Below, piece by piece: positions 10,543-24,549 of a stretch of 64,000 bases of DNA. Source of the stretch: Sphingomicrobium sp. (GTDB lineage: Bacteria; Pseudomonadota; Alphaproteobacteria; Sphingomonadales; Sphingomonadaceae); contig DATAPR010000055.1 of the NCBI GenBank assembly GCA_036265105.1, positions 42,229 to 106,228 on the forward strand. Direction: 5' to 3'. The notes below the pieces were generated by a model. It saw nothing but the letters and a program-made list of their open reading frames with translations, was not told the DNA's origin and made no database searches. The stretch's first letter is position 1. The number at the start of each line of letters is the position of its first letter. A program made the translations under genes and the position numbers.

Positions 10543-12201
10543 CTATTCGTATACTCTCGCGAAGAGCGACTTATCGTCGGCGCCCGCCTTTAACAATCCA
10601 GCATACACGCCCTCAGGCAACAGCAATGCCTCGGGGGGCCCAATCCGGAAAACAATTACCGTCGGTCCCCTTTTAAGAGGAACGGGCTGCTTCACGTCCG
10701 AACCATCGAGGTTGAAATAATCCCGCAATAGCACTCCGTTTAGGTCATAGAGTGCGTAGGTCGCTCCGATCGGGACATTGAAGGCAGTTGCTTGACCTCG
10801 CCGCAGACGGATCCCTGCGATGCGGACGTTCGGGGCGACTTGCACATAGCTCTCGCGGATGAGAGGGCCCACAACGGGCTCGATCGCTTCCATTCGATAT
10901 GACCACAAAATGATCTTGGGTGGCGAATGCGCGAAGATCCCCCACGCCTCTGACTGGTGGCCCTCACGCCGAGTTTCAAGGATCGCATGCCGGTCGAGCC
11001 ACAGCGTCGAAGACTCCGCTCGGTTCGGAAGCATCCCGATCCCATCGAAATAGACGTCATGCGGCGCAAGTAGCTTTTCCGCGCGCGCGACCAGTGCGAG
11101 CTGGGCGTGGTTGTCGAGCCGCAAGGTTTGCACGTTTCGCACGAAACTTGCACCGATGGCGATCACAAGCACCGCCCACGCGGCTGCTAGGTAAAGTGGC
11201 TTGCCAGCGAGCGCGTCGAACGCCTCCGGCGCCCACAGCGCCAAGAACGGCAGCGCCATTACGAAAATGTAGGGCCACGGCTGGTTGTGCGCGAAAACGA
11301 GAGCGGTGATAACCACGGAGAAGATTAAAGCGATCCGGCGCGAACCGCTCAGCCTCGGCAACCGCGCCAGCGCCAGCGCCATTCCGCCGAAGCAGAATAG
11401 ATAGAGCAATGAGTTGCGAATAAGCGTCTGCACCACGAAGTGCCTGAGCCCGCCGTACTCGGCCGCGGTTTGCGGCGAGGCGACCCCCAAGGGGCCGAAT
11501 ACTAGATTCTGCGCGATCGGCAGCGGGTGGTTTCCGCCAAAGCCGAAGCAGTAAAGGACGACTGGGACTGACCAGCCGAACACCAGCCATCCGCCGCGCA
11601 CAACCGCTTGGCGGTTGCGCTTATGGAGCAGAGAGTCGCCGACGAGCGCGAGCCCCAATGCCACATCGAGATAGATCGCCTTTTGCGTGGAGAGGAACGC
11701 AAGGCCGCCGAGGATACCCGAGAAGAAGACTCGCCTGGGCCGGGGTTCCCCCCATACGGCCACGAGGAGCGCCGCAGCGCCGAAGAACGTGGCAAGCGGC
11801 TCCGCGCGAGTCTCGAAGACGCGCTCTATGAAATTGGAGAAGCAGAGCAGGATGAGAACGACCAGTCCCGATTGCCTCCGCATCTCGCCAATCGCGCGCG
11901 CTGAGGCATAGACGATCGCCAGCGTCCCGCAGGCCAGCAGCGCAGTCTCCATCCGTCCGACGAGCAGAACTGACTTGGCGTTCCATCCGATTAGATCGGC
12001 GAGCTTGGCAAAAACTGTGAAGCCCACGGTCTTCGACGGCCAGACCGTCCGGAACATGCCGTGTCCCAAATATTTCGCCCATCCGAGCTGAGCGAACTCG
12101 TCCATGATGAAAACCCTGTTCCACGCAAGCGCGAAAAGGACGACGATCTTCGTTGCGATAAACGCGCCAAGAACCATCCCCGCCCGACTCTTCTTCATCA
12201 T
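10543..12201 (-). CDS. GT-C-fold (ArnT/PMT-like) membrane glycosyltransferase-like protein
   Basis: Acidic 'IMDEF' in first loop; about 12 TM helices; 'RAEP' and 'TQK' motifs; soluble C-terminal domain. Confidence 0.6.
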   Translation of the reverse strand: MMKKSRAGMVLGAFIATKIVVLFALAWNRVFIMDEFAQLGWAKYLGHGMFRTVWPSKTVGFTVFAKLADLIGWNAKSVLLVGRMETALLACGTLAIVYASARAIGEMRRQSGLVVLILLCFSNFIERVFETRAEPLATFFGAAALLVAVWGEPRPRRVFFSGILGGLAFLSTQKAIYLDVALGLALVGDSLLHKRNRQAVVRGGWLVFGWSVPVVLYCFGFGGNHPLPIAQNLVFGPLGVASPQTAAEYGGLRHFVVQTLIRNSLLYLFCFGGMALALARLPRLSGSRRIALIFSVVITALVFAHNQPWPYIFVMALPFLALWAPEAFDALAGKPLYLAAAWAVLVIAIGASFVRNVQTLRLDNHAQLALVARAEKLLAPHDVYFDGIGMLPNRAESSTLWLDRHAILETRREGHQSEAWGIFAHSPPKIILWSYRMEAIEPVVGPLIRESYVQVAPNVRIAGIRLRRGQATAFNVPIGATYALYDLNGVLLRDYFNLDGSDVKQPVPLKRGPTVIVFRIGPPEALLLPEGVYAGLLKAGADDKSLFARVYE

Positions 12202-12208
12202 ATCAGTT

Positions 12209-13318
12209 TCATGAGGTCACGGGCCCTTGAGGCAGCTGCGCCAACTCCACCAGGCGGCGCGCCATCGCGGACCAGTCGTAGCGACGCAGCGCATAGCGGG
12301 CCATCTCAGCTCGGTCCGTCTCGGAAAGTTCGATGCTGTCGATTGCGTCGGAGCAGCGCTTGGCAGATTCGCTCGGCTCCGAAAGATCGATCGTGACGCC
12401 ACGGAGCCATCGCGCGGCGTCGGGATCGGCCCGGTTGCTTGGAGCGCCGCAAACAACCGGCAAGCCGCAAGCCATCGCCTCTTGTATGACTAGCGGATAG
12501 CCTTCTCCGACACTTGGAAGGAGAAGCACATCAGTCGAGCGATAAAGCTTTGCGAGATGGGATTGGTCGAGCACGCCTAGGTCACGGACGTTCGCCAAAC
12601 CCCAATCCGCCGGGCGAATGGGCCCACTCCCCACAAGAAGGAAACTTAGGTCTGCCCGCAATGCAGCGAGCGCGCGCAGCACAGTCAAGCCCTTTTTCTC
12701 TACGTACCGTCCCACAAAAAGTATTTGGCGGGCGCTCGAGCTGAGGGTCTTGGGATCCTCGCTTCGGAAGAAGATCGAGCCGTTGACACCATTGAACAGC
12801 AACTCGCTTGATCGGCCGTAATGTCCGAGCAGGTCTTTGCGAACCGTGTCGCTGACGAACACACGAACATCCGCCGCGCCTAACATTGGTCGAGTAATGA
12901 GTCCGTTCGCGATGCTCATAATCCTGCGCATGATCCGGGAGGCGAAAGGAATCCCAGCAATATGCTGGATAAGGATGGCACGTTTGCCCGTCGCCTTCGC
13001 AATGAGCATCGCCAGTACGGAAGTTGCGTAGAGCGCGTCGTGAATCACGACAGCGTCGCTTCGCCGCACCTCACGCGCGAGCGCACAAATACCGCGGAAG
13101 CCCGGAATCGGCATCGGCAAGCCCGTGAGTTTTTCGGTAGGATTGATGCAAGACAACGGCACCACTTCAATCTCGCCGCCGGGAGGGGGATCGGAATTGC
13201 TGGCAGCCCAAACGGCGATCGCTCCAAGGCGGCCGAACTGACGGTTCAGTTCGCCGGCTACGCGCTCGATGCCGCCGCCGTGACTTTCAAAGAAATGGCT
13301 AATCGTCAGGATGCGCAA
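12209..13318 (-). CDS. Glycosyltransferase family 4
   Basis: 'HGGGIERV', 'LFVGRYVEKKG', 'LPSVGEGYPLVIQEAMACGLPVV'. Confidence 0.92.
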   Translation of the reverse strand: MRILTISHFFESHGGGIERVAGELNRQFGRLGAIAVWAASNSDPPPGGEIEVVPLSCINPTEKLTGLPMPIPGFRGICALAREVRRSDAVVIHDALYATSVLAMLIAKATGKRAILIQHIAGIPFASRIMRRIMSIANGLITRPMLGAADVRVFVSDTVRKDLLGHYGRSSELLFNGVNGSIFFRSEDPKTLSSSARQILFVGRYVEKKGLTVLRALAALRADLSFLLVGSGPIRPADWGLANVRDLGVLDQSHLAKLYRSTDVLLLPSVGEGYPLVIQEAMACGLPVVCGAPSNRADPDAARWLRGVTIDLSEPSESAKRCSDAIDSIELSETDRAEMARYALRRYDWSAMARRLVELAQLPQGPVTS

Positions 13319-13327
13319 GTCGATACT

Positions 13328-13993
13328 TTAGGAAGGCTCGAAACGCATTGTCACTTCGAGTGAATTCGGGAAAAGCATCGCAAATGCTCCGGTACGATAT
13401 GGAAACTGTTCAGACCGTGCCGCAATTCGATAGCCGCTCTCCTTCGCGAGCAGTTCCCACTCGGCCCGGCTGAGATAGTGAGCCCGCACCATGCCGCCGA
13501 ATGGTATGTTGCCGATCGCGTCGAGCGTTGCGAGACGAAGATCGTCAAGCTTTCCACGAGTTTCATGATCCTTGATGTACAGCGGTCCATCTACCGCACG
13601 TCGAATCTCGCGCAGCAGTCCGGAGCGAGCGTCAGCGGGAACATGGTGAATCACATTGTTGATCGTCGCGGCATTGAAACTGCCGTCGCTGAAGGGAAGT
13701 TTTCGCCCGTCGTATTGTTGAGTCTGCACGCTTAGGGACGGACAGAAACGATCCACGACGTCCACGACTTGCACCTCGGCTACCGGAAACAACTCCGAGA
13801 TCGCCTCGGCAATCACGCCTGTCCCCCCCCCCACGTCCAGCAACTTCTGAGCATGGCCAAGCCAGACCTGGCGCAGGCTGCTGAGCAATAGCGTCTGATA
13901 CGTAGGCACCTTCTTTCGGTACATCGAAAGGTGGGCTCCGAGGATTCGTTGAACCGAGTTGAGATCGATTGAAGGCTTCGGGACGGTCATCAT
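13328..13993 (-). CDS. Class I SAM-dependent methyltransferase
   Basis: 'LLDVGGGTG', 'YDGRKLPFSDGSFN', 'VIHH'; start at 13993 overlaps the GtrA stop (ATGA). Confidence 0.85.
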   Translation of the reverse strand: MMTVPKPSIDLNSVQRILGAHLSMYRKKVPTYQTLLLSSLRQVWLGHAQKLLDVGGGTGVIAEAISELFPVAEVQVVDVVDRFCPSLSVQTQQYDGRKLPFSDGSFNAATINNVIHHVPADARSGLLREIRRAVDGPLYIKDHETRGKLDDLRLATLDAIGNIPFGGMVRAHYLSRAEWELLAKESGYRIAARSEQFPYRTGAFAMLFPNSLEVTMRFEPS

Positions 13994-14382
13994 CGCGGCC
14001 CGGCGGTCTTGGGGTCGGGCGCCGCGACTGCCCAGCGCCCGAGCACGAAATTTGCCACAACCATGCAGACCGATCCCATCGGCGCAGCAAAAAGCATCGG
14101 CAGTCCAACGGCGGCGTACCAGAACCACGTCGTCAAGTATGCGAGCGGGACGTTCGCCGACATGGCCGTCGCATAACGCACAAGCCGCGAAATGGAGAGC
14201 GGTTGTCGGAACGTGAAAATTGCGTGTAGCGCATAGCCGCAGCTCGCGACTGCGGCGAAAGAGATGAGCACCGCCAACCACAACGGAATGCTCATGCCAT
14301 TTGCAGCAACCAAAATGAGGTTGTGCAACACCAGACAAAATCCCGCTACGACGAGGTAGGTGACTGGAGTGCGCGCGGTCAT
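13990..14382 (-). CDS. gtrA: GtrA-family lipid-linked sugar flippase
   Basis: About 130 aa with four hydrophobic helices, 'FTFR', 'RY'; ATGA-coupled to both neighbours. Confidence 0.8.
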   Translation of the reverse strand: MTARTPVTYLVVAGFCLVLHNLILVAANGMSIPLWLAVLISFAAVASCGYALHAIFTFRQPLSISRLVRYATAMSANVPLAYLTTWFWYAAVGLPMLFAAPMGSVCMVVANFVLGRWAVAAPDPKTAGPR

Positions 14383-15020
14383 TTCCGGACTTTTCTTGCA
14401 CGCACTAGGAATACGCACGCATCGTTGTTTCGGATCGCTGCGGGCGTCATCGAATCTTCCAGCATCGCCCGCAAGTTCATTATTCCCGCCAGCACGGATG
14501 CAAACGCTCCTCCTATGAGAGGTACTTTTCGCAACGCGAATGCAAAACCCGTTAGTCTGATGAGAGTGGTAGTCGCTAGTGGGCCCGCAATCGCGTGAAC
14601 GTCTTCAACTACGAACCTTCGGTCGGACAAGTCGGCAATCAGTCCCGTCCGTGTCCATCGGCGGTGATCTTCAGGATGCGGGTGGTAAAGCCACGTTCCA
14701 TGAGTGGATAGGAGCAGCACCCCGTCGTCCGAAAGGAGCCGATGCATCTCCGAGCAATACGCATCAAGGTCGCGAACGTGTTCGAGCACCTGAATTGACA
14801 GTACCGCAGCCGCCGATCCGTCCGGAAGAGGAACGCGTCCTTGAGCGTCGATCTTCAATGACGCTCCATCATCGATGTCTGCGCCGCGGTAGTCGATTTG
14901 CATCTCATTGAGCATGTCCGCGTAGGGCATCTCACCACAGCCGAGGTCGACCGTTAATGCCTCGGGAGGGATGTGAGCGCTGACTTCGCGTTGCAACAGC
15001 CGGGCGAGCTGTCGCAACAC
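14379..15020 (-). CDS. Class I SAM-dependent methyltransferase (start uncertain, frame open further upstream)
   Basis: 'VDLGCGEMPY', 'VLEHV', 'LSTHGTWLYHPHPED'. Confidence 0.85.
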   Translation of the reverse strand: MLRQLARLLQREVSAHIPPEALTVDLGCGEMPYADMLNEMQIDYRGADIDDGASLKIDAQGRVPLPDGSAAAVLSIQVLEHVRDLDAYCSEMHRLLSDDGVLLLSTHGTWLYHPHPEDHRRWTRTGLIADLSDRRFVVEDVHAIAGPLATTTLIRLTGFAFALRKVPLIGGAFASVLAGIMNLRAMLEDSMTPAAIRNNDACVFLVRARKVRK

Positions 15021-15084
15021 AAGCCAGTCCGTGTCCCAAATGCGAGGTTTAGCGCGACTTCTCCTCAGAGCAGCACCAGGTCGC

Positions 15085-16305
15085 TCAAAAGCCGTGCCGC
15101 TCGTCGAGATTGTCGAGCAGCAGCTTCATTACGAATCCCGACATGACCATCATTACACCCGCGACGCAGCCCGTCGTGACCGCGAAAACGAGGTGCACCG
15201 ATTGCTCCATCGGACCGCCGACGAAAATCCACTTGAACGCTAGCAGCGCATCCGCGCTCAAGGCCGCGGCGGTCAGTAATCCCCCGAGGCCAACCAGCCA
15301 TTCAAGCGGTCGGCCGCGCTTGAGCCAGGGAACGATCCGGCTGGCGCCGGTCGGCTGATAGATGGCGATCGCTACCTTCGCCAGCGCTCCGAGAAGAATT
15401 GCGCAGAGGCCAATCAGGGTCGCCATTGACGACAGAGCTACGAAGTGAATTCCGAAATAGAAGTCCCCGATCTTCATCGGGCCGTCAGCGAGCGCTGCGA
15501 GCCCGAACATCCCTGCAACTAATAGAACGAGCCCTGGGATTAGGTACACAGTATCGGGCGCATAGGCGATGATTAGCCTGAGGTGCCGCCAACCGTCTCG
15601 AAACGATCGCAGGTGCGGCGGTCGGTCGCGTTTGTCGGGGTAAAGCCTGATCGGCACCTCGCGGATGTCGAGCCCGGCGCGCTGGGCGTTGATCACCATT
15701 TCGGACGCGAACTCCATTCCCGGCGAACGCGCTCCCATCTTCTGGTAGGCGTCGCGAGTGAAGCCTCGCATCCCGCAATGGAAGTCGCGGATCGACGAGC
15801 GGTGAAGCCAGCGGGCGACCGCAGACAAGACCGGGTTGCCAACATAACGATGCAGTAGCGGCATCGCGCCCGCCTCTATCCCGCCCGCGAACCGGTTCCC
15901 CATCACCAGATCGGCCCCGTCCTCGAGTGCGTCGATGAAGCCGTCGAGCTCGCTCCAGTCGTAGCTGTCGTCGGCGTCAGCCATGATAAGGTATTTTCCG
16001 CGCGCTGACGTTGCGGCGACCGTAATTGCGGCTCCGTACCCCTTTATTGGCTGGTGAACGACTCGGGCGCCGATCGACTCGGCTATCTCTACCGACTTGT
16101 CGGTGGAACCATTGTCGCCGACGACGACCTCGCCGGCGATGCCGCGTGCAGCGAACGCCGCGAACGCCTTTCGAATACAAATGCCAAGCGTCCGCTCTTC
16201 ATTGAGGCAAGGAATAATTGCCGAAACGAGCGGCGCGGCCGTGCCTTGCGCGAGCGTAACGTTCGAACGAGGGGACATCGTAGTTAGACTCAATCTGCCC
16301 TCCAT
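15085..16305 (-). CDS. GT2 polyprenol-phosphate glycosyltransferase (DPM1-like) with C-terminal TM helices
   Basis: 'IIPCLNEE', 'DNGSTD', 'KGYG', 'DADDSYD', 'GNRF', 'DFHCGMRG', 'MEFASE'; ATG 16305 after AGGGG. The longer ORF to 16953 is not credible. Confidence 0.88.
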   Translation of the reverse strand: MEGRLSLTTMSPRSNVTLAQGTAAPLVSAIIPCLNEERTLGICIRKAFAAFAARGIAGEVVVGDNGSTDKSVEIAESIGARVVHQPIKGYGAAITVAATSARGKYLIMADADDSYDWSELDGFIDALEDGADLVMGNRFAGGIEAGAMPLLHRYVGNPVLSAVARWLHRSSIRDFHCGMRGFTRDAYQKMGARSPGMEFASEMVINAQRAGLDIREVPIRLYPDKRDRPPHLRSFRDGWRHLRLIIAYAPDTVYLIPGLVLLVAGMFGLAALADGPMKIGDFYFGIHFVALSSMATLIGLCAILLGALAKVAIAIYQPTGASRIVPWLKRGRPLEWLVGLGGLLTAAALSADALLAFKWIFVGGPMEQSVHLVFAVTTGCVAGVMMVMSGFVMKLLLDNLDERHGF

Positions 16306-16546
16306 ATGTCCCCTAATCCGCCCGACATCCCTTAACTGGAGAGCCGATCCGGGCGCCAAACGAATTCTTGCTCGAATGCCGATGAATGGCAAGACGAAGG
16401 TCATTTCAAGCACTTGGGACGCCTTGTCCGTTTTCGGGACGATAACTTTGGCGGAGTGCGCCTTCCAATAATCCCTTGACCTTACCCCGTCATAGGCGTG
16501 AAAATGGTGGTGGAACCGAGCCGAAGCCTTTGGGGGGCAACCGGCA

Positions 16547-17575
16547 ATGCAGCCATTTCCGGCCAATTTTCTCGAGAGCATGGACGCGCGTCCGGCGCGC
16601 CGGCGTGCTCTCGTCACGGCGGCGGTCGCCGCTTCCGCAATCTTCGCCATTACTGCGGCAATCGCTCTGCCTTCGGCGGCCCGCCCAAGCGTGGCCCGAG
16701 CAACGGCGCCGCCACCATCGTCCCGCAAGCCGCAATATCTGAGCAACGTCGAACGGCCTCGGGCCGTGGCGGCAGCCATCAACTCAGAATCGAGCCAGCG
16801 CCGCTTCACGGGCCGTGTAGGCCAGGACTTGTCGCGCTCGCTCATCGCCGCTGGGGTGCCGGAGCGCCAAGGCCGCGAATATGTAGCTCTGCTGGGGAAA
16901 GCGATCCAGCTTTCAGACGGTCTTAGCGTCGACGACAAGTTCGATCTCGTCATCCGGCGGAATTCCGACGGTAGCCTCGGCCAGCTGCTCTACGCGGGCA
17001 TGGACCGTATCGCCCGCGCCGACGTCGAGCTGATGAAATGGACTGACGGCAAGCACGTCATTTGGGTTAACGCCGATGGCGCCGGCGGTGGCGCTGGAGG
17101 TAGCCAGGAAATCCGAATGCCAGTGCAGGGACGCCTCACCTCTGGCTTTGGCGAGCGGTTCCATCCGATCCTCGGGTACGAAAGGTTCCATGCAGGGGTC
17201 GACCTCGGCGCGGTGGCGGGGACACCGATTGTCGCGGCGGCGGACGGCAATGTGGTGAGCGCGGGCTGGGCCGGGGGCTACGGCCGCGCGGTCGCGATCG
17301 CGCATGCGGGCGGGATCGAGACCAAGTACGGGCACATGAGCCGCATTTCAGCCTACTCGGGCGAGATCGTGCGTCGCGGGGAGGTGATCGGATATGTCGG
17401 ATCGAGCGGGCTGTCGACTGGGCCGCACCTGCATTTCGAAGTGATGAAAAACGGGCGGCCGGTGAATCCGTTATCAGTGAAGTCGATCGCTGACGGGCCG
17501 GGCCAACTTGAGGGCGCCAAGCTCGCCGCCTTCCGGAACGAACTAAGGAGTCTGCTCGTGGCGAGCGCGAGATAG
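16547..17575 (+). CDS. M23 family peptidoglycan endopeptidase
   Basis: N-terminal TM anchor; 'HAGVD' (HxxxD), 'YGHMS', 'STGPHLHFEV'. Confidence 0.9.
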   Translation: MQPFPANFLESMDARPARRRALVTAAVAASAIFAITAAIALPSAARPSVARATAPPPSSRKPQYLSNVERPRAVAAAINSESSQRRFTGRVGQDLSRSLIAAGVPERQGREYVALLGKAIQLSDGLSVDDKFDLVIRRNSDGSLGQLLYAGMDRIARADVELMKWTDGKHVIWVNADGAGGGAGGSQEIRMPVQGRLTSGFGERFHPILGYERFHAGVDLGAVAGTPIVAAADGNVVSAGWAGGYGRAVAIAHAGGIETKYGHMSRISAYSGEIVRRGEVIGYVGSSGLSTGPHLHFEVMKNGRPVNPLSVKSIADGPGQLEGAKLAAFRNELRSLLVASAR

Positions 17576-17579
17576 GCCG

Positions 17580-18566
17580 ATGACGTTCGAAGCCGACATT
17601 CGTCACGCGGCGGCGGGCTTGTGTCTGCCGAACCCTGTTCTTTCGATCGTAGTTCCGGTGAGGGATGAAGAAGACGCAATCCCAGTTTTCATCGACCGGG
17701 TCGTAAGCGTCGTCACGGCTTTGAACGACGCCGCTGCAGCGAGCTTCGAGATTCTGTTCATCGACGATGGCAGCGCCGATGGATCGCTCGACCTTTTGCG
17801 GAGCGCCAACGCCGTTGACGGGCGCATCCGGGTCCTGTCTTTTTCTCGCAATTTTGGAAAAGAGGCGGCACTCACCGCGGGACTCGACCATGCGCGCGGC
17901 GACGCCGTCGTGCCAATGGACGCGGACCTTCAGGACCCCCCTGAAGTGCTCGGCGCCATGATCGCAAAATGGCGGGAAGGTTTCGAAATCGTCGACGCAA
18001 TTCGGTCGAACCGAGAGGCGGACAGCGCTGGGAAACGGATCACCGCGCACCTTTTTTACAGGGCGCACAACCGTCTGAGCACCGACAAGATCCCCGAAAA
18101 TGCGGGAGATTTCCGCTTGCTCGACCGCAAAGTGGTGGACGTGATCCGGGCAATGCCCGAGCGTAGCCGCTTCATGAAGGGCCTGTTCGCGTGGCCGGGT
18201 TTTCGCCAGGCTGCCGTCACTTATGCTCGACAACCGAGACAGGTCGGAACCACGAAATTCGGTTATTGGAAACTGTGGACGTTCGCACTCGACGGGATCA
18301 CCGCGACTTCCACGCTGCCCCTGCGGGTATGGAGCTACGTTGGGGTATCGATTGCGGCGCTCGCTCTTGCCTATGCGTCTTTCATCGTCGCGAGGACGCT
18401 GATCTTCGGCATCGACGTACCGGGCTATGCATCGTTGATAGTCGCAATTCTGTTCTTGGGGGGGCTGCAATTGCTCTCACTAGGCATAATCGGGGAATAT
18501 ATTGGCCGCATCCTGGTCGAAACAAAACAGCGCCCGCTCTACGTTGTGCGCGAGCAAATCGGCTGA
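17580..18566 (+). CDS. gtrB: GT2 bactoprenol glycosyltransferase (GtrB/YfdH-like)
   Basis: 'FIDDGSADGS', 'FSRNFGKEAALTAGLD', 'DADLQDPP', 'GDFRLLDR', 'RFMKG', two C-terminal TM helices, 'GEYIGR...KQRPLY'. Confidence 0.9.
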   Translation: MTFEADIRHAAAGLCLPNPVLSIVVPVRDEEDAIPVFIDRVVSVVTALNDAAAASFEILFIDDGSADGSLDLLRSANAVDGRIRVLSFSRNFGKEAALTAGLDHARGDAVVPMDADLQDPPEVLGAMIAKWREGFEIVDAIRSNREADSAGKRITAHLFYRAHNRLSTDKIPENAGDFRLLDRKVVDVIRAMPERSRFMKGLFAWPGFRQAAVTYARQPRQVGTTKFGYWKLWTFALDGITATSTLPLRVWSYVGVSIAALALAYASFIVARTLIFGIDVPGYASLIVAILFLGGLQLLSLGIIGEYIGRILVETKQRPLYVVREQIG

Positions 18567-18668
18567 GGGGCGTGCGGGCGGCATGGCAGCTCGGCAGCAC
18601 GAAGATTTATGCTCTTCCCGCCAAAGACCTGAGCCGATCGATTAACTTGGCTAAGGAATCATAAGCGG

Positions 18669-19658
18669 ATGAAGAGCTGGGCCGTTCCCGCGGCGATTAT
18701 CGTCGCGGTTGAGTATTTGTTTGCTCTGCTAATCGGGGCGAGGGTGGGTTTCCACTATCGAATTCCTTTCGTCGCCTACGCAATCATCGGAACCACCATA
18801 GCGGCGGCCGGAGTGGTGGTTTTCATTCTAGGCCGGTTAATTCGATATGCTGCGGGCAGGGAGCGCCGGCCCGCGCGACGGCTGATGGCGGAGCTGCCAA
18901 AATGCCTTCCGTTCCTCGCAGGCACGCTGCTCGTCTCGCTCGAAATCGGAGTGCTCACCTGGACGAAAATCATGCTGCCGATCGCCGTTCCTTTCTGGGC
19001 GGATCCCTTCCTCGCCGACTTCGATCATGGGATCTTTCACGCGGAGCCTTGGAGGATCGCGCATGACCTTTTCGGCTGGGCGGACCCCTTAGTTGATCGC
19101 GCCTATATCACATGGGCGCCTATTAAGTTCGGGACCCTAATAGTCGTCCTCGCAATGCCGGAATCCGCGGTGAAGGCGCGCGCACTGGTTGCTTATTTCG
19201 CGATGATGGCGATGGCCACGATGGGACAGTATCTGCTCTCGTCGGGCGGTCCCGTTTTCTATGCGCAGCTTGGGTTCGGGGATCGCTTTGCGAGTCTTCC
19301 AATCGAGCAATGGGTTGAAAGTACGACTCAATATCTCTGGAGAAATTATGAGCGCGCGGGCGGCGACATCGGCGGTGGAATCTCTGCAATGCCTTCTCTG
19401 CATGTGGCTGTTGCGCTTTGGGTTGCACTCGTCACACGGTCCTATTGGCCGCGACTTGCGGTTGCCGGTTTCTTCTATTTCGCACTGATTGTGGTCGGGT
19501 CGGTGCTCCTTGGATGGCACTACGCAGTCGACGGGATCGTGGGTGTCGCGATCACTCTGGTTGCCTGGCGCGTCGCCGCCGTGCCGACGCGCGAGCGAGC
19601 GACTGAGCCTGGATCGCTTCCACTCGATGCGATTCCGACTTCGACTCCAAAGAACTGA
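18669..19658 (+). CDS. PAP2-superfamily integral membrane enzyme, Aur1/IPC-synthase-like (copy 1)
   Basis: 'GPVFY', 'GISAMPSLHVA', 'LGWHYAVD' (His/His/Asp triad). Confidence 0.8.
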   Translation: MKSWAVPAAIIVAVEYLFALLIGARVGFHYRIPFVAYAIIGTTIAAAGVVVFILGRLIRYAAGRERRPARRLMAELPKCLPFLAGTLLVSLEIGVLTWTKIMLPIAVPFWADPFLADFDHGIFHAEPWRIAHDLFGWADPLVDRAYITWAPIKFGTLIVVLAMPESAVKARALVAYFAMMAMATMGQYLLSSGGPVFYAQLGFGDRFASLPIEQWVESTTQYLWRNYERAGGDIGGGISAMPSLHVAVALWVALVTRSYWPRLAVAGFFYFALIVVGSVLLGWHYAVDGIVGVAITLVAWRVAAVPTRERATEPGSLPLDAIPTSTPKN

Positions 19659-20739
19659 CGCGCGCAATTCTGGCCACGCACAGAATCGCCGCGATCGGGA
19701 CCGTGTTGGGCCCCACATAAAGGTGGAAATAAAACAAGACGGCCGGGAGGCAGGCGACCCACACGAGCAGGGCGAAGCGGCGCTCGCCTCGGCGCAGCAA
19801 CCACGCGAAGGGAACGATTAGCAGCAGCGCGTCGTAAGTGAAGAGGTACGGCGGGACCAGGATGGTCGCGGCGGCAAGCACCGCCCCTCGCGCTTCCCAA
19901 TTTGAGCTCCACGCGCGCCATGTCACGATTGCTGCGGCACCGGCGGCGATCAGCTGCATCACGAAAGCGAGCCTCTGCGCCATTCCGAAAAATCGGCAGA
20001 AGGCGAAGACGCTGGCCATCTCCGTCCACGGCCAGCTGCCCTGCAGTACGAAGTGGCCGAACTCGGTCATCATCCGTGCCCACGCCAGATAAGAATCCGA
20101 TCCGAAGGCGACGAGACCCGCGAGCAATAGCAGAGTCGACGAGAGCGCCGCTCCTGTGAACGGCCGCCACGCCCGCGCAGCTACCAGAGCGACCGGGATC
20201 AGCGGTGCGAGTTGGGGCTTCAGCACGAAGCAGCCAAATAGCATGCCGCCAACGAACGGCCGTTCCTGCAGCGCCTCCAGAGCCCAGGCGAAGATGCCAG
20301 TGAACAGAAACCCGTTCTGCCCGACCAACGCATTCGGAAAGACCGGCGGCAAGACGATCGAGGTCGGCAGCGGCGCGCGTCTGCGCGTCGCCACGAGATA
20401 GAATGCGCCCGTGACTATCTGCCATGCTGCGAATGCGAACCGAAAGCTGAACAGGCCGAAGGGGGTCACGAGCAGCAAGAAAGGCGGCGGATAGGCGAAT
20501 GGCATCAGGCCGGGGAGATGGACGAACGTCAGTTCCGTCGCCCGGTGCGCCTGAAGGTCATAGGCGAGGACGGCTTTGTGATCGATCGCGAGCCGACCAG
20601 CAGCCCAGAAGCTGACGAAGTCGATACCTGGCGTCGTGACGAAGCTGCGCCACGCGGCATAAACCGCCGTCACGACAGCGATTCCACCGATCGACCAGGC
20701 GAGCACCCACCCCCAGCGAATGATCCGATCATTCGTCAT
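19552..20739 (-). CDS. GT87/DUF2029-family polyprenol-dependent glycosyltransferase
   Basis: 'DFVSFWAAG', 'FAYPP', 'GQNG', 'LKPQL', 'YD'; multiple TM helices. Confidence 0.85.
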   Translation of the reverse strand: MTNDRIIRWGWVLAWSIGGIAVVTAVYAAWRSFVTTPGIDFVSFWAAGRLAIDHKAVLAYDLQAHRATELTFVHLPGLMPFAYPPPFLLLVTPFGLFSFRFAFAAWQIVTGAFYLVATRRRAPLPTSIVLPPVFPNALVGQNGFLFTGIFAWALEALQERPFVGGMLFGCFVLKPQLAPLIPVALVAARAWRPFTGAALSSTLLLLAGLVAFGSDSYLAWARMMTEFGHFVLQGSWPWTEMASVFAFCRFFGMAQRLAFVMQLIAAGAAAIVTWRAWSSNWEARGAVLAAATILVPPYLFTYDALLLIVPFAWLLRRGERRFALLVWVACLPAVLFYFHLYVGPNTVPIAAILCVARIARVSSLESKSESHRVEAIQAQSLARASARRRRARQPE

Positions 20740-20819
20740 CTGGCTGTGGTGTCTCTCAATGGGAGCATCATGTCATTGGCCCGATTGGACGATTTGTCGG
20801 CCCGTGGTACCACCGGCGG

Positions 20820-21833
20820 GTGGGGGAGAGGCTTAACACCGAGCGCGGGTGGGCGGTACCGGGCGTATTGCTGACGCTCGCGTCGGCGGCATTCGCACTC
20901 GTCGAGATCCCGGATCGTTCGGGAATTGTTCCCGCACTTCTGTTGCTTCCAATGTGGATGGTCGCTGCTGGAGCAATGGCCTGTGTCATAGTGCTGATCG
21001 CAACCGTGCGTATGATGCTGCGCGGAGCCGATCATCCAGTCGGTTATTGGCTCGGGTTCATCGTAGAACATCGCGCGCGGCTGCTGTTCGTGACGGTGTG
21101 CATGGTCTTGACCGGCCTCAATATGATCACATTTATGTGGATTAAGCCGCTCCTCAATTATCTCGTGCCGTTCTGGGCTGACCCTTATCTTGCCTCGATC
21201 GACCGGGCAATTTTTGGCATTGATCCCTGGCGGCTGTTCGGCTGGCTCAACAACTATCCGATGGCGATCTTCTATCACCGCGCATGGTTCGCGCTGATGA
21301 TCCTCACGCTCCTGACGGTGCTATGGCGCCCGGCTTCAGCCGAGAAGAGCGCAGTTATGCTAACCTATTTCGTTCTCTGGTCGATCTTTGGACCCGCAGT
21401 TCACACACTTATGCCGGCAGCTGGGCCGGTTTTTTACGCGAGGCTCGGATACGGCAACGCTTTCTCGGGCCTCGTATCCGCGCGGGAGACGCGGCAGCTC
21501 GCAGACTATCTCTGGCGGACTTACTCTGGAGCGCGGTTCGGCCCCGCGGCTGGAATTTCGGCGATGCCGTCACTGCATATCGCGACGACCGTTTGGATGG
21601 TCATCGCAGTCGCAATCTTCGAACGCCGCTGGCTCGTCGCCATGATCCCTGCGGCCGCACTGATCTTCGTGCTCTCCATTTCGCTCGGGTGGCATTATGC
21701 GATCGACGGATTCGTCGGGGGGGCCGGAGCCGTTCTAATCTGGTACGTCCTACACGTCTTCATGACGCGCGCGTCCCCTTACAGCGATGGCAAAGGAGTT
21801 GCTGCCCTCGCAGACGAAAGTATACGGGCCTAG
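20820..21833 (+). CDS. PAP2-superfamily integral membrane enzyme, Aur1/IPC-synthase-like (copy 2)
   Basis: 'PFWADP', 'AAGPVFY', 'GISAMPSLHIA', 'LGWHYAID'. Confidence 0.8.
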   Translation: MGERLNTERGWAVPGVLLTLASAAFALVEIPDRSGIVPALLLLPMWMVAAGAMACVIVLIATVRMMLRGADHPVGYWLGFIVEHRARLLFVTVCMVLTGLNMITFMWIKPLLNYLVPFWADPYLASIDRAIFGIDPWRLFGWLNNYPMAIFYHRAWFALMILTLLTVLWRPASAEKSAVMLTYFVLWSIFGPAVHTLMPAAGPVFYARLGYGNAFSGLVSARETRQLADYLWRTYSGARFGPAAGISAMPSLHIATTVWMVIAVAIFERRWLVAMIPAAALIFVLSISLGWHYAIDGFVGGAGAVLIWYVLHVFMTRASPYSDGKGVAALADESIRA

Positions 21834-21917: not shown

Positions 21918-22688
21918 ATGTTATATCAATTGAGTAACCGGATGAGCTCGAGATCGGCGGCGTTGCTGCTGACGATCGATACGCATCTCGACGCCATCCT
22001 CAAATATTGGTTGCTTGTTGCCGGACTCGCATCGGCGGCTCGGATAGCGCTGGCGCCAAATACGGAGCCCGTTGCCAATGTTTCGACCTTCGCTTCTTAC
22101 TTCCTGCTGGTGGTGGCACCGTTCGCGTCGACTTTTCTCGCGTTGCGCTGGTTTGCCGATGGGCACCGCCAGCCACAGCCTGCGACCCGGCTCGCTCGCG
22201 TCGGCCGATGGCGTGTCGTAAACCGCGCCGAGGCCGAAAAGCATCGGCTGTACGGTCCCCGTGGGATCATGGTGTCGCTGATCATCGGCATGATGATCAA
22301 CGTGCCTGTGCGCGCCGCCGAATATTTCGCTGCAATGCCGCCGATCCCGATCGATGCGCCGCGTTGGCTGTCTGCCCTTCATTTCGCAATGACCTTCGAT
22401 GTCGTCGTGTTCACGAGCCTCTACATGGTTGCGTTTGTCGCCGCGCTTCGCCGCGTGCCGCTGTTTCCCCGGCTGCTGGTTGCTATCTGGCTTGCGGACC
22501 TCGCCATGCAGCTCCTGACCGCCCAGATGGTCGGTACAACTCACGTGCCAGCGAACGTCGCGGTCGCGCTCCAGCACCTGCTGGTCGGCAACGTAAAGAA
22601 AGTGCTGATCAGTATGACGCTATGGCTGCCGTACTTGCTCCTTTCCACGCGCGTCAACGTCACTTACCGGCATCGCATTCCCGCGTAG
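21918..22688 (+). CDS. DUF2569-like membrane protein
   Basis: Multi-TM ORF ending 'W-x-PYLLLSTRVNVT', which I associate with DUF2569. Confidence 0.6.
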   Translation: MLYQLSNRMSSRSAALLLTIDTHLDAILKYWLLVAGLASAARIALAPNTEPVANVSTFASYFLLVVAPFASTFLALRWFADGHRQPQPATRLARVGRWRVVNRAEAEKHRLYGPRGIMVSLIIGMMINVPVRAAEYFAAMPPIPIDAPRWLSALHFAMTFDVVVFTSLYMVAFVAALRRVPLFPRLLVAIWLADLAMQLLTAQMVGTTHVPANVAVALQHLLVGNVKKVLISMTLWLPYLLLSTRVNVTYRHRIPA

Positions 22689-23097: not shown

Positions 23098-23277
23098 ATG
23101 AAGACCTTCATTCGTATGCTCAAGGACGAGTCCGGCGCTTCGGCGGCGGAATACGCCCTCATTCTCGCGATCGTCGGTTCGGCGATTGCGCTTGCAGCGA
23201 TTACGCTCGGCCACACCATTGGCAATGCCATGAACTCGGCCAGCACCTGCATCAGCTCGAAGGGCACGAACTGCTAA
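23098..23277 (+). CDS. flp: Flp/type IVc pilin 1
   Basis: 'DESG|ASAAEY' prepilin cleavage and Flp motif, hydrophobic helix. Confidence 0.92.
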   Translation: MKTFIRMLKDESGASAAEYALILAIVGSAIALAAITLGHTIGNAMNSASTCISSKGTNC

Positions 23278-23321
23278 GCTGACTAATTGCTGTTTGCGAA
23301 ATGACGCAGAAAGGGATTTCG

Positions 23322-23504
23322 ATGGGAATTCTCATCAAGATGCTGAAGGACCGATCCGGTGCTTCGGCCGCCGAGTATGCGTTAATTCTCGCGATCGTCG
23401 GTTCCGCTATTGCGCTCGCAGCCTTCACGCTCGGGCGAACTATCGGGAACGCGATCAACAGCACAGACGCTTGCATCAGCAGCAAGGGAGGCTCTTGCAG
23501 CTGA
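23322..23504 (+). CDS. flp: Flp/type IVc pilin 2
   Basis: 'DRSG|ASAAEY', paralogue of pilin 1. Confidence 0.92.
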   Translation: MGILIKMLKDRSGASAAEYALILAIVGSAIALAAFTLGRTIGNAINSTDACISSKGGSCS

Positions 23505-23512
23505 GAAAGACC

Positions 23513-23540
23513 TGGGGCCGTCGTTTCGGCGGCGGCCCCA
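23513..23540 (+). terminator. Hairpin between the pilins and cpaB (partial terminator or RNA stabiliser)
   Basis: TGGGGCCGTCG/CGGCGGCCCCA 11-bp stem; no T-tract. Confidence 0.5.
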
Positions 23541-23628
23541 CTCACTCCAGTGTATCGACTGCTTTGTTAAACAGGAGCTTACGCGGGAGTCGAACTTAGG
23601 TTAGAATCCGCGTCCGGGGGGACGGACC

Positions 23629-24549
23629 ATGATGTCACGTCAAACAATGATCGCACTGACTGGCGCGATCGTTTTGGGACTTATCGCGGTGTTCATCGCG
23701 AACTCGTATCTGAACGGCGCGCAGAAGCGTGCCTATGCGGGCGCGACGACGAAGGTCGCGGTCGCGAGCGCGCCGATGGCCTACGGAACCGTCATAACAC
23801 CTGACAAGGTGCGCTTTGCTGACTTTCCGAACTCAAGCATCCCGCCTGGGGCGTTTACCAACGAACAGCAGCTGCTGCCCGCCGGAAAGAAGCGCGTCGC
23901 GCTGATGGAGATCGGTGTCAACGAACCGATCCTGAAGGACAAGATATCGGGCGAAGGTGAGGGCGCATCGATCTCCGCGCTTCTTCCTGACGGAATGCGC
24001 GCGGCTACCGTTCGCATCAACGATGTTTCAGGCGTCGCGGGCTTCATCCAGCCAAACGATCATGTCGACGTTCTGATCACGCGCGACCTCGAAGGTGGCA
24101 ACGCCACTCAGGCAACGGATGTGCTGCTTCAGAACATTCGGGTCATGGCGATCGGCCAGCAGGCAAAGGACGCCAACGGAAAACCAATTTCAGCTCGAAC
24201 AGCAACTTTGGAGGTTGCGCCGATCGATGCACAAAAACTCGCGCTTGGCGAGGCGGCGGGCAGCTTGAGCCTCGTGCTCCGCAAGCCCGGCGAGCCGAGC
24301 AATCCAGTTGTCGAGACCGTCAGTCTCAATGACCTTCGCTACAACATGTACGGCGGTGCGCGCTATCCGGCGCCCGCGGTGGTCGGAAGCCTCGGCACGC
24401 CAGCGGTTCCTGCCGCGGCGCCAAGGCCAGTTCACCGCGTGGGTGTGATCAAAATTAGGCCCGTGCCGCCGGCCGACTTTGGCAAGCAGATCGAAGTGTA
24501 CCGCGGAACGAAGAGCGACCAGGTGAAGGTGGGGGAAAATGGGCGCTAA
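23629..24549 (+). CDS. cpaB: Flp pilus assembly protein CpaB/RcpC
   Basis: SAF-like region; 'GMRAATVRINDVSGVAGFIQPNDHVDVL', 'LLQNIRVMAIGQ'. Confidence 0.92.
   Translation: MMSRQTMIALTGAIVLGLIAVFIANSYLNGAQKRAYAGATTKVAVASAPMAYGTVITPDKVRFADFPNSSIPPGAFTNEQQLLPAGKKRVALMEIGVNEPILKDKISGEGEGASISALLPDGMRAATVRINDVSGVAGFIQPNDHVDVLITRDLEGGNATQATDVLLQNIRVMAIGQQAKDANGKPISARTATLEVAPIDAQKLALGEAAGSLSLVLRKPGEPSNPVVETVSLNDLRYNMYGGARYPAPAVVGSLGTPAVPAAAPRPVHRVGVIKIRPVPPADFGKQIEVYRGTKSDQVKVGENGR

Follow-up and report, generated by a model that had tools for sequence, protein, structure and literature searches.

A variable glycosyltransferase gene island beside the Flp pilin genes of a Sphingomicrobium Tad locus

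Known systems for glycosylation outside the cytoplasm

Several described systems use lipid-linked sugars to decorate acceptors at the periplasmic face of the membrane. In group IV Pseudomonas aeruginosa, the GT-C enzyme TfpW is encoded next to the pilin gene and arabinosylates Ser/Thr of the type IVa pilin, using a polyprenyl-phosphate-linked sugar that is made in the cytoplasm and flipped by a GtrA-like protein, for which other flippases can substitute (bioRxiv 10.1101/2020.04.19.049825). In the GtrA/GtrB/GtrC O-antigen glucosylation systems of Shigella and Salmonella phages, a GT2 polyprenyl-phosphate sugar synthase, a GtrA flippase and a polytopic periplasm-facing transferase modify a pre-made acceptor. 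In the mycobacterial PIM/LM/LAM pathway, Ppm1 acts together with PimE, a polyprenyl-phosphomannose-dependent enzyme, and other GT87 enzymes (PMC12041525), whereas the Haloferax Agl pathway combines the GT2 AglJ, further GTs, the methyltransferase AglP and the GT-C AglB. Pilins can carry both a glycan and a phospho-head-group, as in Neisseria (PglL and PptA). Similarly, Flp1 of A. actinomycetemcomitans is reported to be glycosylated and to carry phosphorylcholine, with pptA homologs named as candidate phosphorylcholine transferases (PMC6182317). We found no paper that assigns a glycosyltransferase to Flp.

Here, we analyzed a 64,000-nt stretch of DNA (the window) from the soil bacterium Sphingomicrobium sp. 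(contig DATAPR010000055.1), in which membrane sugar-transfer genes lie beside a Tad pilus locus. A first-pass annotation had described positions 10543–21833 as one complete lipid-carrier-dependent glycosylation toolkit, coupled to attachment, that puts methylated sugars on Flp/TadG, a Ser/Thr-rich adhesin or a sphingolipid. The gene content it listed was confirmed in full. Its interpretation was only partly supported: the region is indeed not an ordinary polysaccharide locus, its lipid-carrier/GT-C chemistry acts outside the cytoplasm, and a link to the Tad pilus exists, with Flp as the best-supported acceptor, but the 11 kb comprise two modules rather than one toolkit.

Gene content of the region

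All gene classes listed gave significant family matches within 10543–21833, and no wzx, wzy, wzc or ABC exporter gene lies within these coordinates. The GtrA gene (13990–14382, minus strand) is easily missed, since it lies in another frame inside the spurious N-terminal extension of ORF 13328–14401. Two further ORFs, 20736–21278 (minus strand) and the first ∼216 codons of 15085–16953 (minus strand), run antisense to real genes and are spurious. The first-pass annotation had also not listed an M23 peptidoglycan endopeptidase gene (16547–17575, plus strand; Pfam Peptidase_M23, 1.4e-34), which splits the region into Module A (10543–16305, minus strand) and Module B (17580–21833). In the related tad loci where this peptidase gene was detected, it lies on the far side of the island from flp, with GT-C and PAP2_3 genes in between, and thus forms a conserved boundary of the flp-side island.

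Downstream, the Tad locus (23098–36627) was confirmed as well. It starts with two pilin genes on the plus strand, flp-1 (23098–23277; …SGASAAEYALILAIVG… with tail NSASTCISSKGTNC) and flp-2 (23322–23504; tail NSTDACISSKGGSCS), which share the same Flp processing motif. The flp-2 product, a candidate acceptor, matched Pfam Flp_Fap at 7.9e-07 (29.2 bits, below the cut-off of 32.2). The assembly genes follow at 23629–36627 (plus strand) and encode RcpC/CpaB, a secretin, TadG, TadE, a TadE-like and a TadZ-like protein, TadA, TadB, TadC, two TPR proteins and a prepilin peptidase, as supported by Pfam matches to RcpC, Secretin, Tad, TadE, T2SSE, T2SSF, TPR and Peptidase_A24.

Module A is a portable six-gene cassette

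Module A has the order GT2-MT-GtrA-MT-GT4-GT-C. Its GT2 (15085–16305, minus strand; Pfam Glycos_transf_2, 6.7e-24) has four C-terminal membrane helices (hydrophobic segments at ORF residues 460–614) and is a candidate polyprenyl-phosphate hexose synthase of the DPM-synthase/AglJ-like type. Its NCBIfam matches to AglJ (5e-40), dolichyl-phosphate hexose transferase (8.7e-28) and PpgS (1.1e-19) were all below the respective cut-offs, and its homologs carry GT2_TM_C. It is followed by SAM-dependent methyltransferase 2 (14379–15020, minus strand, 213 aa; Methyltransf_23, 5.2e-11, and Methyltransf_11), the candidate flippase GtrA (130 aa, four hydrophobic segments; GtrA_DPMS_TM, PF04138, 1.7e-10, 41.6 bits against a cut-off of 26.1) and SAM-dependent methyltransferase 1 (13328–13993, minus strand, 221 aa from the ATG at 13993; Methyltransf_11/25/23). 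GtrA is joined to both neighboring genes by ATGA start/stop overlaps, and the six genes are translationally coupled. The last two genes encode a predicted cytoplasmic, nucleotide-sugar-dependent GT4 (12209–13318, minus strand; Glyco_trans_1_4, 4.8e-19, Glycos_transf_1 and Glyco_transf_4) and a 552-aa GT-C enzyme (10543–12201, minus strand) with a membrane domain and periplasmic DUF7056 (2.4e-18) and DUF7055 (1.2e-11) domains, and a PMT_2 match of 6e-05. The AlphaFold2 model of the latter had a mean pLDDT of 77, and its best Foldseek matches were AglB, ArnT, ALG9, Pmt4 and PglB with a TM of about 0.5.

To determine whether Module A is tied to the pilus, we compared related loci, which are denoted by L-numbers. 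The full cassette recurs in the same order at 55–77% identity in Mesorhizobium (L049) and in another contig (L050). In these cassettes, the GT4 is 66%, methyltransferase 1 66–70%, GtrA 55–59% and methyltransferase 2 76–77% identical, while the GT2 is 73–81% identical to the cassette homologs, and homologs of the GT-C enzyme in Sphingomonadales and Mesorhizobium are 55–68% identical. A related but diverged form is present in Sphingomonas L048, with strong matches only for the GT2 (81%) and the GT-C (56%), weak ones for GtrA (24%) and one methyltransferase (26%), and no GT4 match. All three lie in unrelated surroundings without tad genes or an adhesin gene within 10 kb. Conversely, no Module A gene was seen in the roughly 35 related tad loci examined, and the closest relative, L001 (proteins 70–86% identical), has a Wzx/Wzy/Bac_transf cluster at that position instead. 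Methylated sugars on the pilus, as proposed by the first-pass annotation, therefore have no support, and only the GT87/PAP2_3/GtrB-like half of the region is linked to flp.

We infer that Module A builds a methylated mono- or disaccharide on polyprenyl phosphate, flips it and transfers it to an unidentified periplasmic acceptor. The module is not specifically tied to the pilus. It has all three parts of the Gtr systems, but adds a GT4 and two methyltransferases, and the serotype-specific Gtr transferases are not GT87 and do not carry DUF7055/7056; moreover, sphingomonads are not known to have O-antigen. It also resembles the Agl pathway, in that an AglJ-like GT2 would start a glycan on a polyprenyl monophosphate alongside GT and methyltransferase genes, with AglB and ArnT among the best structural matches of its GT-C. 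However, all NCBIfam scores are far below the family cut-offs, the TM is only about 0.5, and there is no evidence for en bloc transfer or for a protein acceptor.

Module B lies in a hypervariable island upstream of flp

Module B is located directly upstream of the two flp genes and starts with a GT2 with two C-terminal helices (17580–18566, plus strand; Glycos_transf_2, 3.8e-29). This candidate polyprenyl-phosphate sugar synthase is GtrB/ArnC/PgfS-like, with NCBIfam matches to PgfS (2.5e-83, 280 bits) and ArnC (9.3e-51), both below cut-off, and is present in the island of L001, L003 and L017. Two PAP2_3 membrane enzymes of about 330 aa, a (18669–19658, plus strand; 5.4e-26) and b (20820–21833, plus strand; 2e-17), flank a 395-aa GT87-family GT-C enzyme (19552–20739, minus strand; 5.2e-27, 95.6 bits). 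Enzyme b has the same direction as the flp genes and is 83% identical to its ortholog in L001 and 56–60% in L021, L113 and L114. Between the island and flp lies a gene for a conserved 256-aa polytopic membrane protein (21918–22688, plus strand), with a weak DUF2569 match (1.9e-4, below cut-off) and 2528 homologs, at least 120 of them 71–86% identical. It occupies this position between flp and the GT-C genes in most related loci but is absent in L074, L075, L076, L086 and L100.

The AlphaFold2 model of the GT87 enzyme was confident (mean pLDDT 90.8), and its best PDB match was PimE (9dm5, TM 0.67/0.69), albeit at 17% identity and with no match to PimE detectable by sequence search. An Asp in the first periplasmic loop (D40), as in PimE-type enzymes, and a Lys (K174) are invariant in our GT87 alignment. 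In the alignment of PAP2_3 enzyme a, the S-x-H (GISAMPSLH) and H-x3-D (GWHYAVDG) motifs are invariant and no conserved Arg is present. This His-His-Asp set without the arginines typical of PAP2 phosphatases resembles the head-group transferases AUR1/Ipt1 and the sphingomyelin synthases, which belong to Pfam PAP2_3 and relatives.

Of 41 species-level loci fetched through GT87 alone, 20 have an flp gene within 4 kb, and only one (L033) has flp genes further out within the 10-kb flanks. GT87 genes were found next to flp genes in four arrangements. First, they lie beside the tad machinery in Sphingomonadaceae. Of 19 loci fetched through RcpC alone that have at least 2.9 kb upstream, 14 carry one or more GT87 genes between M23 and flp; the other five carry PAP2_3, in three of them together with large unannotated polytopic proteins. 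Second and third, GT87 is paired with orphan flp genes in housekeeping surroundings without tad machinery within 10 kb, either as purM-purN-ndk-GT87 convergent with flp (L007, L009, L013, L016, L037, L046, L047) or as two flp genes divergent from GT87 (L023, L030, L032), and these fall in different GT87 subclades. Fourth, in Burkholderia cepacia complex replicons (Betaproteobacteria, about 31% identity), three flp genes face a GT87-GT87-GT2(-GtrA) operon beside the tad machinery, with a GT2 of the Module B type following the two GT87 genes. This operon, which like Module A has all three Gtr-type parts, is annotated in three records (the second GT87 is not annotated in L135) and was recovered by BLAST in L136, where the GtrA gene was not detected. 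In B. cenocepacia J2315, the corresponding genes include BCAS0294, BCAS0295 and BCAS0299 (PMC3417382).

This recurrence should be read with some caution. Most tad-linked cases come from Sphingomonadaceae and share ancestry, and most tad-linked GT87 genes form one clade, consistent with vertical inheritance. The number of truly independent events is about four, and about half of the GT87 homologs sampled have no flp gene nearby, indicating that the family has other roles too. The adjacency could also reflect gene order without shared function, with the island as a general hotspot for genes acting on an exopolysaccharide, periplasmic glucan or other envelope glycan, lodged between conserved genes (M23, the 256-aa protein) that happen to flank tad. 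The rapid turnover of island content, as at polysaccharide loci, the adjoining Wzx/Wzy/Bac_transf cluster in L001 and the single main clade fit this view. We nevertheless consider it unlikely: orphan flp-GT87 pairs exist away from M23, the 256-aa gene and tad, the Burkholderia arrangement arose in a different class with different flanking genes, and in L074, L075, L076, L086 and L100 the GT87 gene lies within about 1 kb of flp with no detected gene between them.

Candidate acceptors

Taken together, the gene identities, the two-module structure, the portability of Module A and the repeated GT87-flp adjacency are established by our analysis, whereas the acceptor, the sugar and the role of the PAP2_3 enzymes are inferred. 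The best explanation, to which we assign a probability of about 0.5, is that the region holds two independent periplasmic glycosylation modules that happen to be neighbors and that Module B modifies the Flp pilin, and possibly the TadE/F/G minor pilins, before assembly. In this view, the GT2 would load a hexose onto polyprenyl phosphate at the cytoplasmic face. The lipid-linked sugar would then be flipped, for which Module A's GtrA or a housekeeping flippase could serve, as Module B has none of its own. The GT87 enzyme would transfer it at the periplasmic face onto the short Ser/Thr-rich, disulfide-looped C-terminal tail of membrane-anchored Flp, or onto a group already attached there, and the AUR1-like PAP2_3 enzymes would add or remodel a phospho-head-group taken from a membrane phospholipid. 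The changing enzyme content of the island would give strain-specific pilus surfaces, for example against pilus-binding phages.

Such a modification would be analogous to TfpW arabinosylation of Pseudomonas pilin, but the assignment rests on gene neighborhood alone, without biochemical or mass-spectrometric evidence. In contrast to the TfpW system, the pilus here is Tad/Flp (type IVc) with a 45–55 residue pilin that has no globular domain, the GT-C enzyme is GT87 (PimE-like) rather than Emb/TfpW-like, no DprE1/DprE2 arabinose-donor genes are present, and PAP2_3 enzymes are. Likewise, the island contains neither pptA nor pglL; PptA is not a PAP2 enzyme, and PglL is a Wzy_C oligosaccharyltransferase that uses diphosphate-linked glycans. 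Every characterized GT87 enzyme acts on lipid-anchored glycans (PIM, LM/LAM, arabinogalactan) and none on a protein (PMC12041525), and cryo-EM of the Caulobacter Tad pilus showed no extra density for a modification (PMC10710030).

The serious, though less likely, rival is that Module B builds or tailors an envelope glycolipid or sphingolipid, an option also raised by the first-pass annotation. For example, the PAP2_3 enzymes might put a phospho-head-group on ceramide, which the GT87 enzyme would mannosylate from polyprenyl-phosphomannose made by the GT2, in parallel to fungal IPC, MIPC and M(IP)2C or mycobacterial PIMs; the position beside flp would then reflect co-regulation or inherited gene order. 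PimE acts on a phosphoinositol glycolipid (PMC12041525) and, as in mycobacteria, a polyprenyl-phosphate sugar synthase is encoded alongside. PAP2_3 relatives with known function act on ceramide, and Sphingomonadaceae have sphingolipid outer membranes. The two PAP2_3 paralogs flanking a mannosyltransferase-like gene also recall yeast Aur1 and Ipt1, and many GT87 paralogs are not near flp. Unlike in the mycobacterial pathway, the host is a Gram-negative alphaproteobacterium, and the genes sit beside pilin rather than phosphatidylinositol or lipoglycan genes. However, this reading does not explain the four flp layouts, including orphan flp genes and Burkholderia, which has LPS rather than glycosphingolipids. 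Several islands have GT87 without PAP2_3 (L004, L074, L075), Burkholderia has no PAP2_3, and no sphingolipid synthesis gene was seen near any of the loci.

Finally, we considered whether all eleven genes form one pathway that puts methylated sugars on the giant adhesin (37195–46092, 2965 aa) or on TadG. The adhesin is 21.7% Ser+Thr and lies 15 kb away in the window, and the S. mutans Pgf system (GtrB-like PgfS plus GT-C proteins) glycosylates Thr-rich adhesins, PgfS being the best NCBIfam match of the Module B GT2. We regard this as very unlikely, as Module A, which holds the methyltransferases, occurs elsewhere without tad genes or an adhesin gene within 10 kb, and the related tad loci with GT87 islands were not seen to carry this adhesin in the stretches examined. 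Furthermore, type I substrates cross both membranes in one step and do not meet periplasm-facing GT-C enzymes, and the adhesin has a dedicated TolC/ABC/HlyD type I system, to which the only ABC exporter in the window (47646–49844) belongs, as well as a LapG-like protease.

Gene content of the region

ORF listing, translation and profile scans gave a gene map in which six genes lie on the minus strand: a PMT_2-like GT-C glycosyltransferase with DUF7056 and DUF7055 (10543-12201), a GT4 (12209-13318), a SAM methyltransferase (13328-13993), GtrA (13990-14382), a second SAM methyltransferase (14379-15020) and a GT2 with four C-terminal membrane helices (15085-16305). After a 240-bp divergent gap, the plus strand carries an M23 peptidase (16547-17575), a GtrB/ArnC/PgfS-like GT2 with two C-terminal helices (17580-18566) and a PAP2_3 protein (18669-19658), followed by a GT87 gene on the minus strand (19552-20739). 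Back on the plus strand we found a second PAP2_3 gene (20820-21833), a conserved 256-aa membrane protein (21918-22688), two flp pilin genes (23098-23277 and 23322-23504) and the rest of a complete Tad locus ending with the prepilin peptidase at 36627. All expected Tad components (Flp pilin, prepilin peptidase, CpaB/RcpC, secretin, TadZ, TadA, TadB, TadC and TadE/F/G) were found within 23098-36627, although TadZ is supported only weakly by Pfam (AAA_31, 0.0034) and otherwise by its expected position. The 3′ ends of the convergent PAP2_3 and GT87 reading frames overlap by 107 bp (19552-19658), so that either both C-terminal tails are really encoded on opposite strands or one gene ends earlier than its ORF suggests.

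The inventory of glycosylation genes in the first-pass annotation is therefore correct. Its GtrA gene lies in a different frame inside the spurious N-terminal extension of ORF 13328-14401 and is missed by a hydrophobicity filter on stop-to-stop ORFs. The conserved cassette in Mesorhizobium (see below) pointed to the gap between the two methyltransferase genes, where GtrA was found with 41.6 bits against PF04138 (cut-off 26.1) and with a start and a stop that overlap the neighbouring genes as ATGA. ORF 20736-21278 (minus strand) and the long N-terminus of ORF 15085-16953 (minus strand) run antisense to real genes. No Wzx flippase, Wzy polymerase, Wzc/Wza or ABC glycan exporter was detected within 10543-21833. 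Scans for promoters and terminators gave nothing above chance, and the window was found in only one soil metagenome run, with no RNA data.

Two modules rather than one toolkit

The first-pass annotation had treated the region as one complete lipid-carrier-dependent toolkit. To examine this, we compared the genomic contexts of homologs of the 552-aa GT-C, which are 55-68% identical across Sphingomonadales and Mesorhizobium. The contexts of three of them showed the left half of the region (Module A) recurring as a unit. In Mesorhizobium (locus L049), GT2 with GT2_TM_C, methyltransferase, GtrA, methyltransferase, GT4 and GT-C are present in the same order, and all six proteins are 55-77% identical to those of the window; a further locus, L050, matched equally well. 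A Sphingomonas genome (L048) carries a related but diverged form, in which only the GT2 (81%) and the GT-C (56%) matched strongly, GtrA (24%) and one methyltransferase (26%) matched weakly, and no GT4 match was found. The flanking genes differ each time (dnaE and an IS66 transposase; TamB and glnA; thyA), and none of them is a tad gene.

Conversely, no Module A gene appeared in any related tad locus fetched through GT87 or RcpC. In the closest relative (L001, proteins 70-86% identical), the position beyond the M23 gene that Module A occupies here holds a cluster of Wzx (Polysacc_synt), Wzy_C, Bac_transf, Alg14/Glyco_tran_28_C, GT2 and methyltransferase genes (L001:13311-21182), so the far side of the M23 gene is also a swap site for surface-glycan gene sets. 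Module A is therefore a portable, translationally coupled cassette whose place beside tad is particular to this genome. It has all three parts of a Gtr-type system (GtrA, a GT2 polyprenyl-phosphate sugar synthase with C-terminal membrane helices, and a polytopic transferase) in one operon with overlapping genes, whereas Module B, the right half, has no flippase gene. The two GT2 proteins scored 138 bits against AglJ (15085-16305) and 280 bits against PgfS and 173 bits against ArnC (17580-18566), all below the equivalog cut-offs, which supports the class but not the exact enzyme. The predicted structure of the Module A GT-C (mean pLDDT 77) has the expected fold, with AglB, ArnT, ALG9, Pmt4 and PglB as its best matches at a TM of about 0.5. 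We infer from sequence alone that the AglJ-like GT2 would start a glycan on polyprenyl phosphate, the GT4 and the two methyltransferases would elaborate it in the cytoplasm, GtrA would flip it and the GT-C would transfer it to an unidentified periplasmic acceptor. This acceptor must exist both in Mesorhizobium and, if sphingomonads lack LPS as is generally held, in bacteria without LPS.

A hypervariable island on the flp side

The right half lies between the M23 gene and the flp genes. GT87 homologs on long contigs showed the order tad machinery, RcpC, flp (1-3 copies), the 256-aa protein, GT87, variable genes and M23, and this held at 72%, 67% and 46% GT87 identity. A scan of one genome per species with a GT87 alignment returned 41 loci, almost all from Sphingomonadales, of which 20 have an flp gene within 4 kb of the GT87 gene. 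In the remaining flanks (10 kb per side where available), only one locus (L033) has flp genes further away.

To remove the bias of anchoring on GT87, we fetched 80 metagenome loci through RcpC alone, 19 of which have at least 2.9 kb upstream. Fourteen of these carry one to three GT87 genes between M23 and flp, including divergent ones confirmed by Pfam. The other five carry PAP2_3, in three of them together with other large polytopic membrane proteins that have no Pfam match. In all, PAP2_3 genes occur in at least thirteen islands. Gene content changes from locus to locus while the flanks stay the same, which is the behaviour of a hypervariable surface-modification island.

Three kinds of large (450-510 aa) polytopic membrane proteins without a Pfam match recur in flp-side islands or beside orphan flp genes: L057:2781-4253(-), L072:3577-5106(-), L118:935-2419(-) and L104:4047-5558(-); L072:2183-3541(-) and L118:2383-3816(-); and L046:11541-13019(+). 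Two of these kinds, the 492-aa protein beside the orphan flp in L046 and ∼500-aa proteins in tad islands, share a D-x-D-V-S-W motif after the first helix, reminiscent of the first-loop acidic motif of GT-C enzymes, but they are not detectably related to each other. They may be unclassified GT-C families. We also considered the 256-aa membrane protein (weak DUF2569), which has no known function, as a pilus or glycosylation component. However, it is far more conserved than anything else in the island (the 120 listed of 2528 homologs are 71-86% identical) and is missing from several flp-GT87 arrangements, and we therefore treat it as a landmark only.

GT87-flp pairing beyond the sphingomonad tad locus

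A neighbour-joining tree placed most tad-linked GT87 genes in one clade, which on its own would allow simple vertical inheritance. Three further observations argue for a functional link. First, a subclade nested within it has left the tad locus and sits in housekeeping surroundings (purM, purN, ndk), yet is still paired, convergently and 110-170 bp apart, with an orphan flp gene of a different, Caulobacter PilA-like type (L007, L009, L013, L016, L037, L046 and L047). An unannotated 492-aa polytopic membrane protein lies on the other side of that flp gene, and no tad gene lies within 10 kb. Second, in the sister clade, three loci (L023 from the isolate Sphingosinicella sp. LHD-64, L030 and L032) have two flp genes divergent from GT87, next to accA. 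Third, a translated search of plasmid and chromid records found GT87 genes of about 31% identity in Burkholderia pyrrocinia, B. stagnalis, B. arboris, B. cenocepacia and Burkholderia sp. FXe9.

In the three annotated Burkholderia records, the order is secretin, CpaB, ATPase (not listed in the FXe9 record), prepilin peptidase, three flp genes and then, divergently, GT87, GT87, GT2 and GtrA; in the FXe9 record the second GT87 was seen only as a BLAST fragment. The same order was recovered by BLAST in B. stagnalis, except that the GtrA gene was not detected. By gene content, this is a complete lipid-carrier glycosylation unit facing the pilin genes in a different class of Proteobacteria. In B. 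cenocepacia J2315, the corresponding genes include BCAS0294 (GtrA-like), BCAS0295 (glycosyltransferase) and BCAS0299 (Flp subunit), next to aidA, and a published expression table lists them together with aidA (PMC3417382). In the Burkholderia chromids (L132, L134, L135 and L136) the operon is followed by the inclusion-body/AidA (PixA) genes, which are quorum-sensing-regulated in B. cenocepacia. We found no functional study of these genes. GT87 homologs without nearby flp also exist, in Cupriavidus, in S. parapaucimobilis and in about half of the sphingomonad loci, and the family is therefore not exclusively pilus-linked.

Predicted enzymes of the island

The GT87 protein scored 95.6 bits against PF09594 (cut-off 25, E 5.2e-27). 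Its structure was predicted with confidence (mean pLDDT 90.8), and the best match among solved structures was PimE (9dm5; TM 0.67/0.69, E 6.4e-06), a polyprenyl-phosphomannose-dependent alpha-1,2-mannosyltransferase whose catalytic base is D58 at the tip of the first juxtamembrane helix and whose K195 binds the phosphate (PMC12041525). In 19 homologs of the window protein, D40 in the first periplasmic loop, before helix 41-52, and K174 are invariant, as judged from the alignment and the predicted model rather than from a superposition on PimE. Sequence searches of GT87, the 552-aa GT-C and PAP2_3 against solved structures found nothing useful.

The two PAP2_3 proteins scored 92 and 64 bits against PF14378 (cut-off 27). 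Alignment of 14 island PAP2_3 proteins showed invariant S243-x-H245 (GISAMPSLH) and H284-x3-D288 (GWHYAVDG) motifs, whereas the arginines of the phosphatase motifs are missing: motif 1 reads K100-x6-V-P and motif 3 lacks Arg. This pattern is typical of head-group transferases such as IPC and sphingomyelin synthases rather than of phosphatases. The strongly basic loop after the second helix would place these motifs on the periplasmic side. The Module B GT2 is a generic GtrB-type enzyme. Its 55-56% identity to the Burkholderia GT2 could have indicated a dedicated ortholog, but we rejected this reading because generic GtrB-like genes from Salmonella, Cupriavidus and others reach 48-54%.

Flp as the candidate acceptor

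The two window pilins, and 68 of 69 distinct Flp sequences from the RcpC-anchored loci (L051-L130), share a conserved hydrophobic N-terminal part, while their C-terminal tails vary and contain two cysteines enclosing a loop, C-x(5-14)-C, rich in Ser, Thr, Pro, Gly and Asn (11-48% Ser+Thr). The Caulobacter-type orphan and Burkholderia pilins seen here lack the cysteines but also end in Ser/Thr-rich tails. A disulfide-bonded tail, as the two cysteines would suggest, is not known to be common in Flp pilins. Before assembly, an Flp pilin is a single membrane helix with this tail in the periplasm, and we infer that it can therefore reach a GT-C active site laterally, much as a lipid-anchored acceptor would.

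There are precedents for such a modification. TfpW, a GT-C enzyme encoded next to pilA, glycosylates Pseudomonas pilin from a lipid-linked donor and works with a GtrA-like protein for which ArnE/F can substitute. Flp1 of A. actinomycetemcomitans has been reported as glycosylated since 2000 and as carrying phosphorylcholine, for which pptA homologs were named as candidate transferases (PMC6182317), and RcpC has been 'implicated' in Flp glycosylation. Against generality, the Caulobacter Tad pilus shows no extra density. As in the TfpW system, a GT-C gene recurrently adjoins the pilin gene, in four arrangements and two classes of Proteobacteria. However, the enzyme here is a GT87, EmbA was only a weak structural match (TM 0.31) and no DprE-like genes were found in the region. 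It may therefore work like TfpW but is not a member of that group.

Of the acceptors proposed in the first-pass annotation, Flp (or the minor pilins) best fits the neighbourhood evidence. A sphingolipid or other glycolipid fits the family precedents for both GT87 and PAP2_3 and is a serious rival, but it explains neither the orphan flp pairs nor the Burkholderia operon. The giant adhesin is Ser/Thr-rich, but the type I secretion system that serves it bypasses the periplasm, and we consider it an unlikely acceptor. The proposal of methylated sugars on the pilus has no support, because the methyltransferases belong to the unlinked Module A.

Taken together, the gene set described in the first-pass annotation is indeed there, whereas its interpretation as one pathway coupled to attachment holds only in part: the region joins a portable GtrA/GT2/GT-C cassette of unidentified target with an flp-linked, hypervariable GT87/PAP2_3 island. 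We are highly confident that the two-module structure and the flp linkage are real, and put the probability that Flp is the acceptor at about one half. Every functional statement, including the sugar donor and acceptor of the GT87 enzyme, the substrate of the PAP2_3 enzymes and the modification of the pilin itself, is inferred from sequence and gene context. While glycosylation of a pilin by a pilin-linked GT-C enzyme is known, we found no paper describing the recurrent GT87-flp pairing or assigning a glycosyltransferase to Flp modification, and literature searches on GT87 with pili, PAP2_3, PF14378 and DUF7055/7056 returned nothing relevant. A more far-reaching reading, which remains tentative, is that Flp pilins of both Sphingomonadaceae and the Burkholderia cepacia complex are modified after translation by dedicated flp-linked GT87 glycosyltransferases, with AUR1-like PAP2_3 phosphotransferases also taking part in the sphingomonads, giving strain-variable glycan or phospho-glycan coats on the pilus. 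To our knowledge, these would be the first enzymes assigned to Flp glycosylation, the first GT87 enzymes with a protein acceptor and the first PAP2_3 enzymes acting on a protein or its glycan.

Tad/Flp pili drive attachment, biofilm formation and colonisation in a very wide range of bacteria. The candidate genes occur in culturable and genetically tractable strains (Sphingomonas daechungensis, S. hankyongi, S. arvum, and B. cenocepacia BCAS0294-0297), which makes the question directly testable. If confirmed, the system would extend GT87 and possibly PAP2_3 chemistry from lipids to a protein acceptor, and would also offer an explanation for the hypervariable pilin tails and island content, for example pressure from pilus-binding phages, as shown for glycosylated Pseudomonas pili. 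The analysis also shows that a tidy-looking 'complete toolkit' can be two unrelated modules, which matters for annotation by neighbourhood.

Other features of the window

Downstream of the Tad locus (37195-53039), a giant 2965-aa adhesin carries ten DUF5801 repeats plus Big_9 and cadherin-like domains, and no GGxGxD repeats. It is followed by TolC (46124), an ABC exporter (47646), a cell-wall hydrolase (49841), HlyD (50890) and a LapG-like transglutaminase-fold protease (52119-53039, minus strand). The ABC protein thus belongs to a type I secretion system, and the whole looks like a LapA/LapG-type retention and release system. Further to the right (54462-63858) lie genes of a conjugative type IV secretion system, namely a TraG/VirD4 coupling protein (54462-56483), a TrbB-like ATPase (56897-57886), TrbE/VirB4 (58361-60919), TrbL/VirB6 (61735-63048) and VirB8 (63049-63858), preceded by a DUF3363 protein (53163-54302). 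The right end of the window is probably an integrative conjugative element or a plasmid-derived region.
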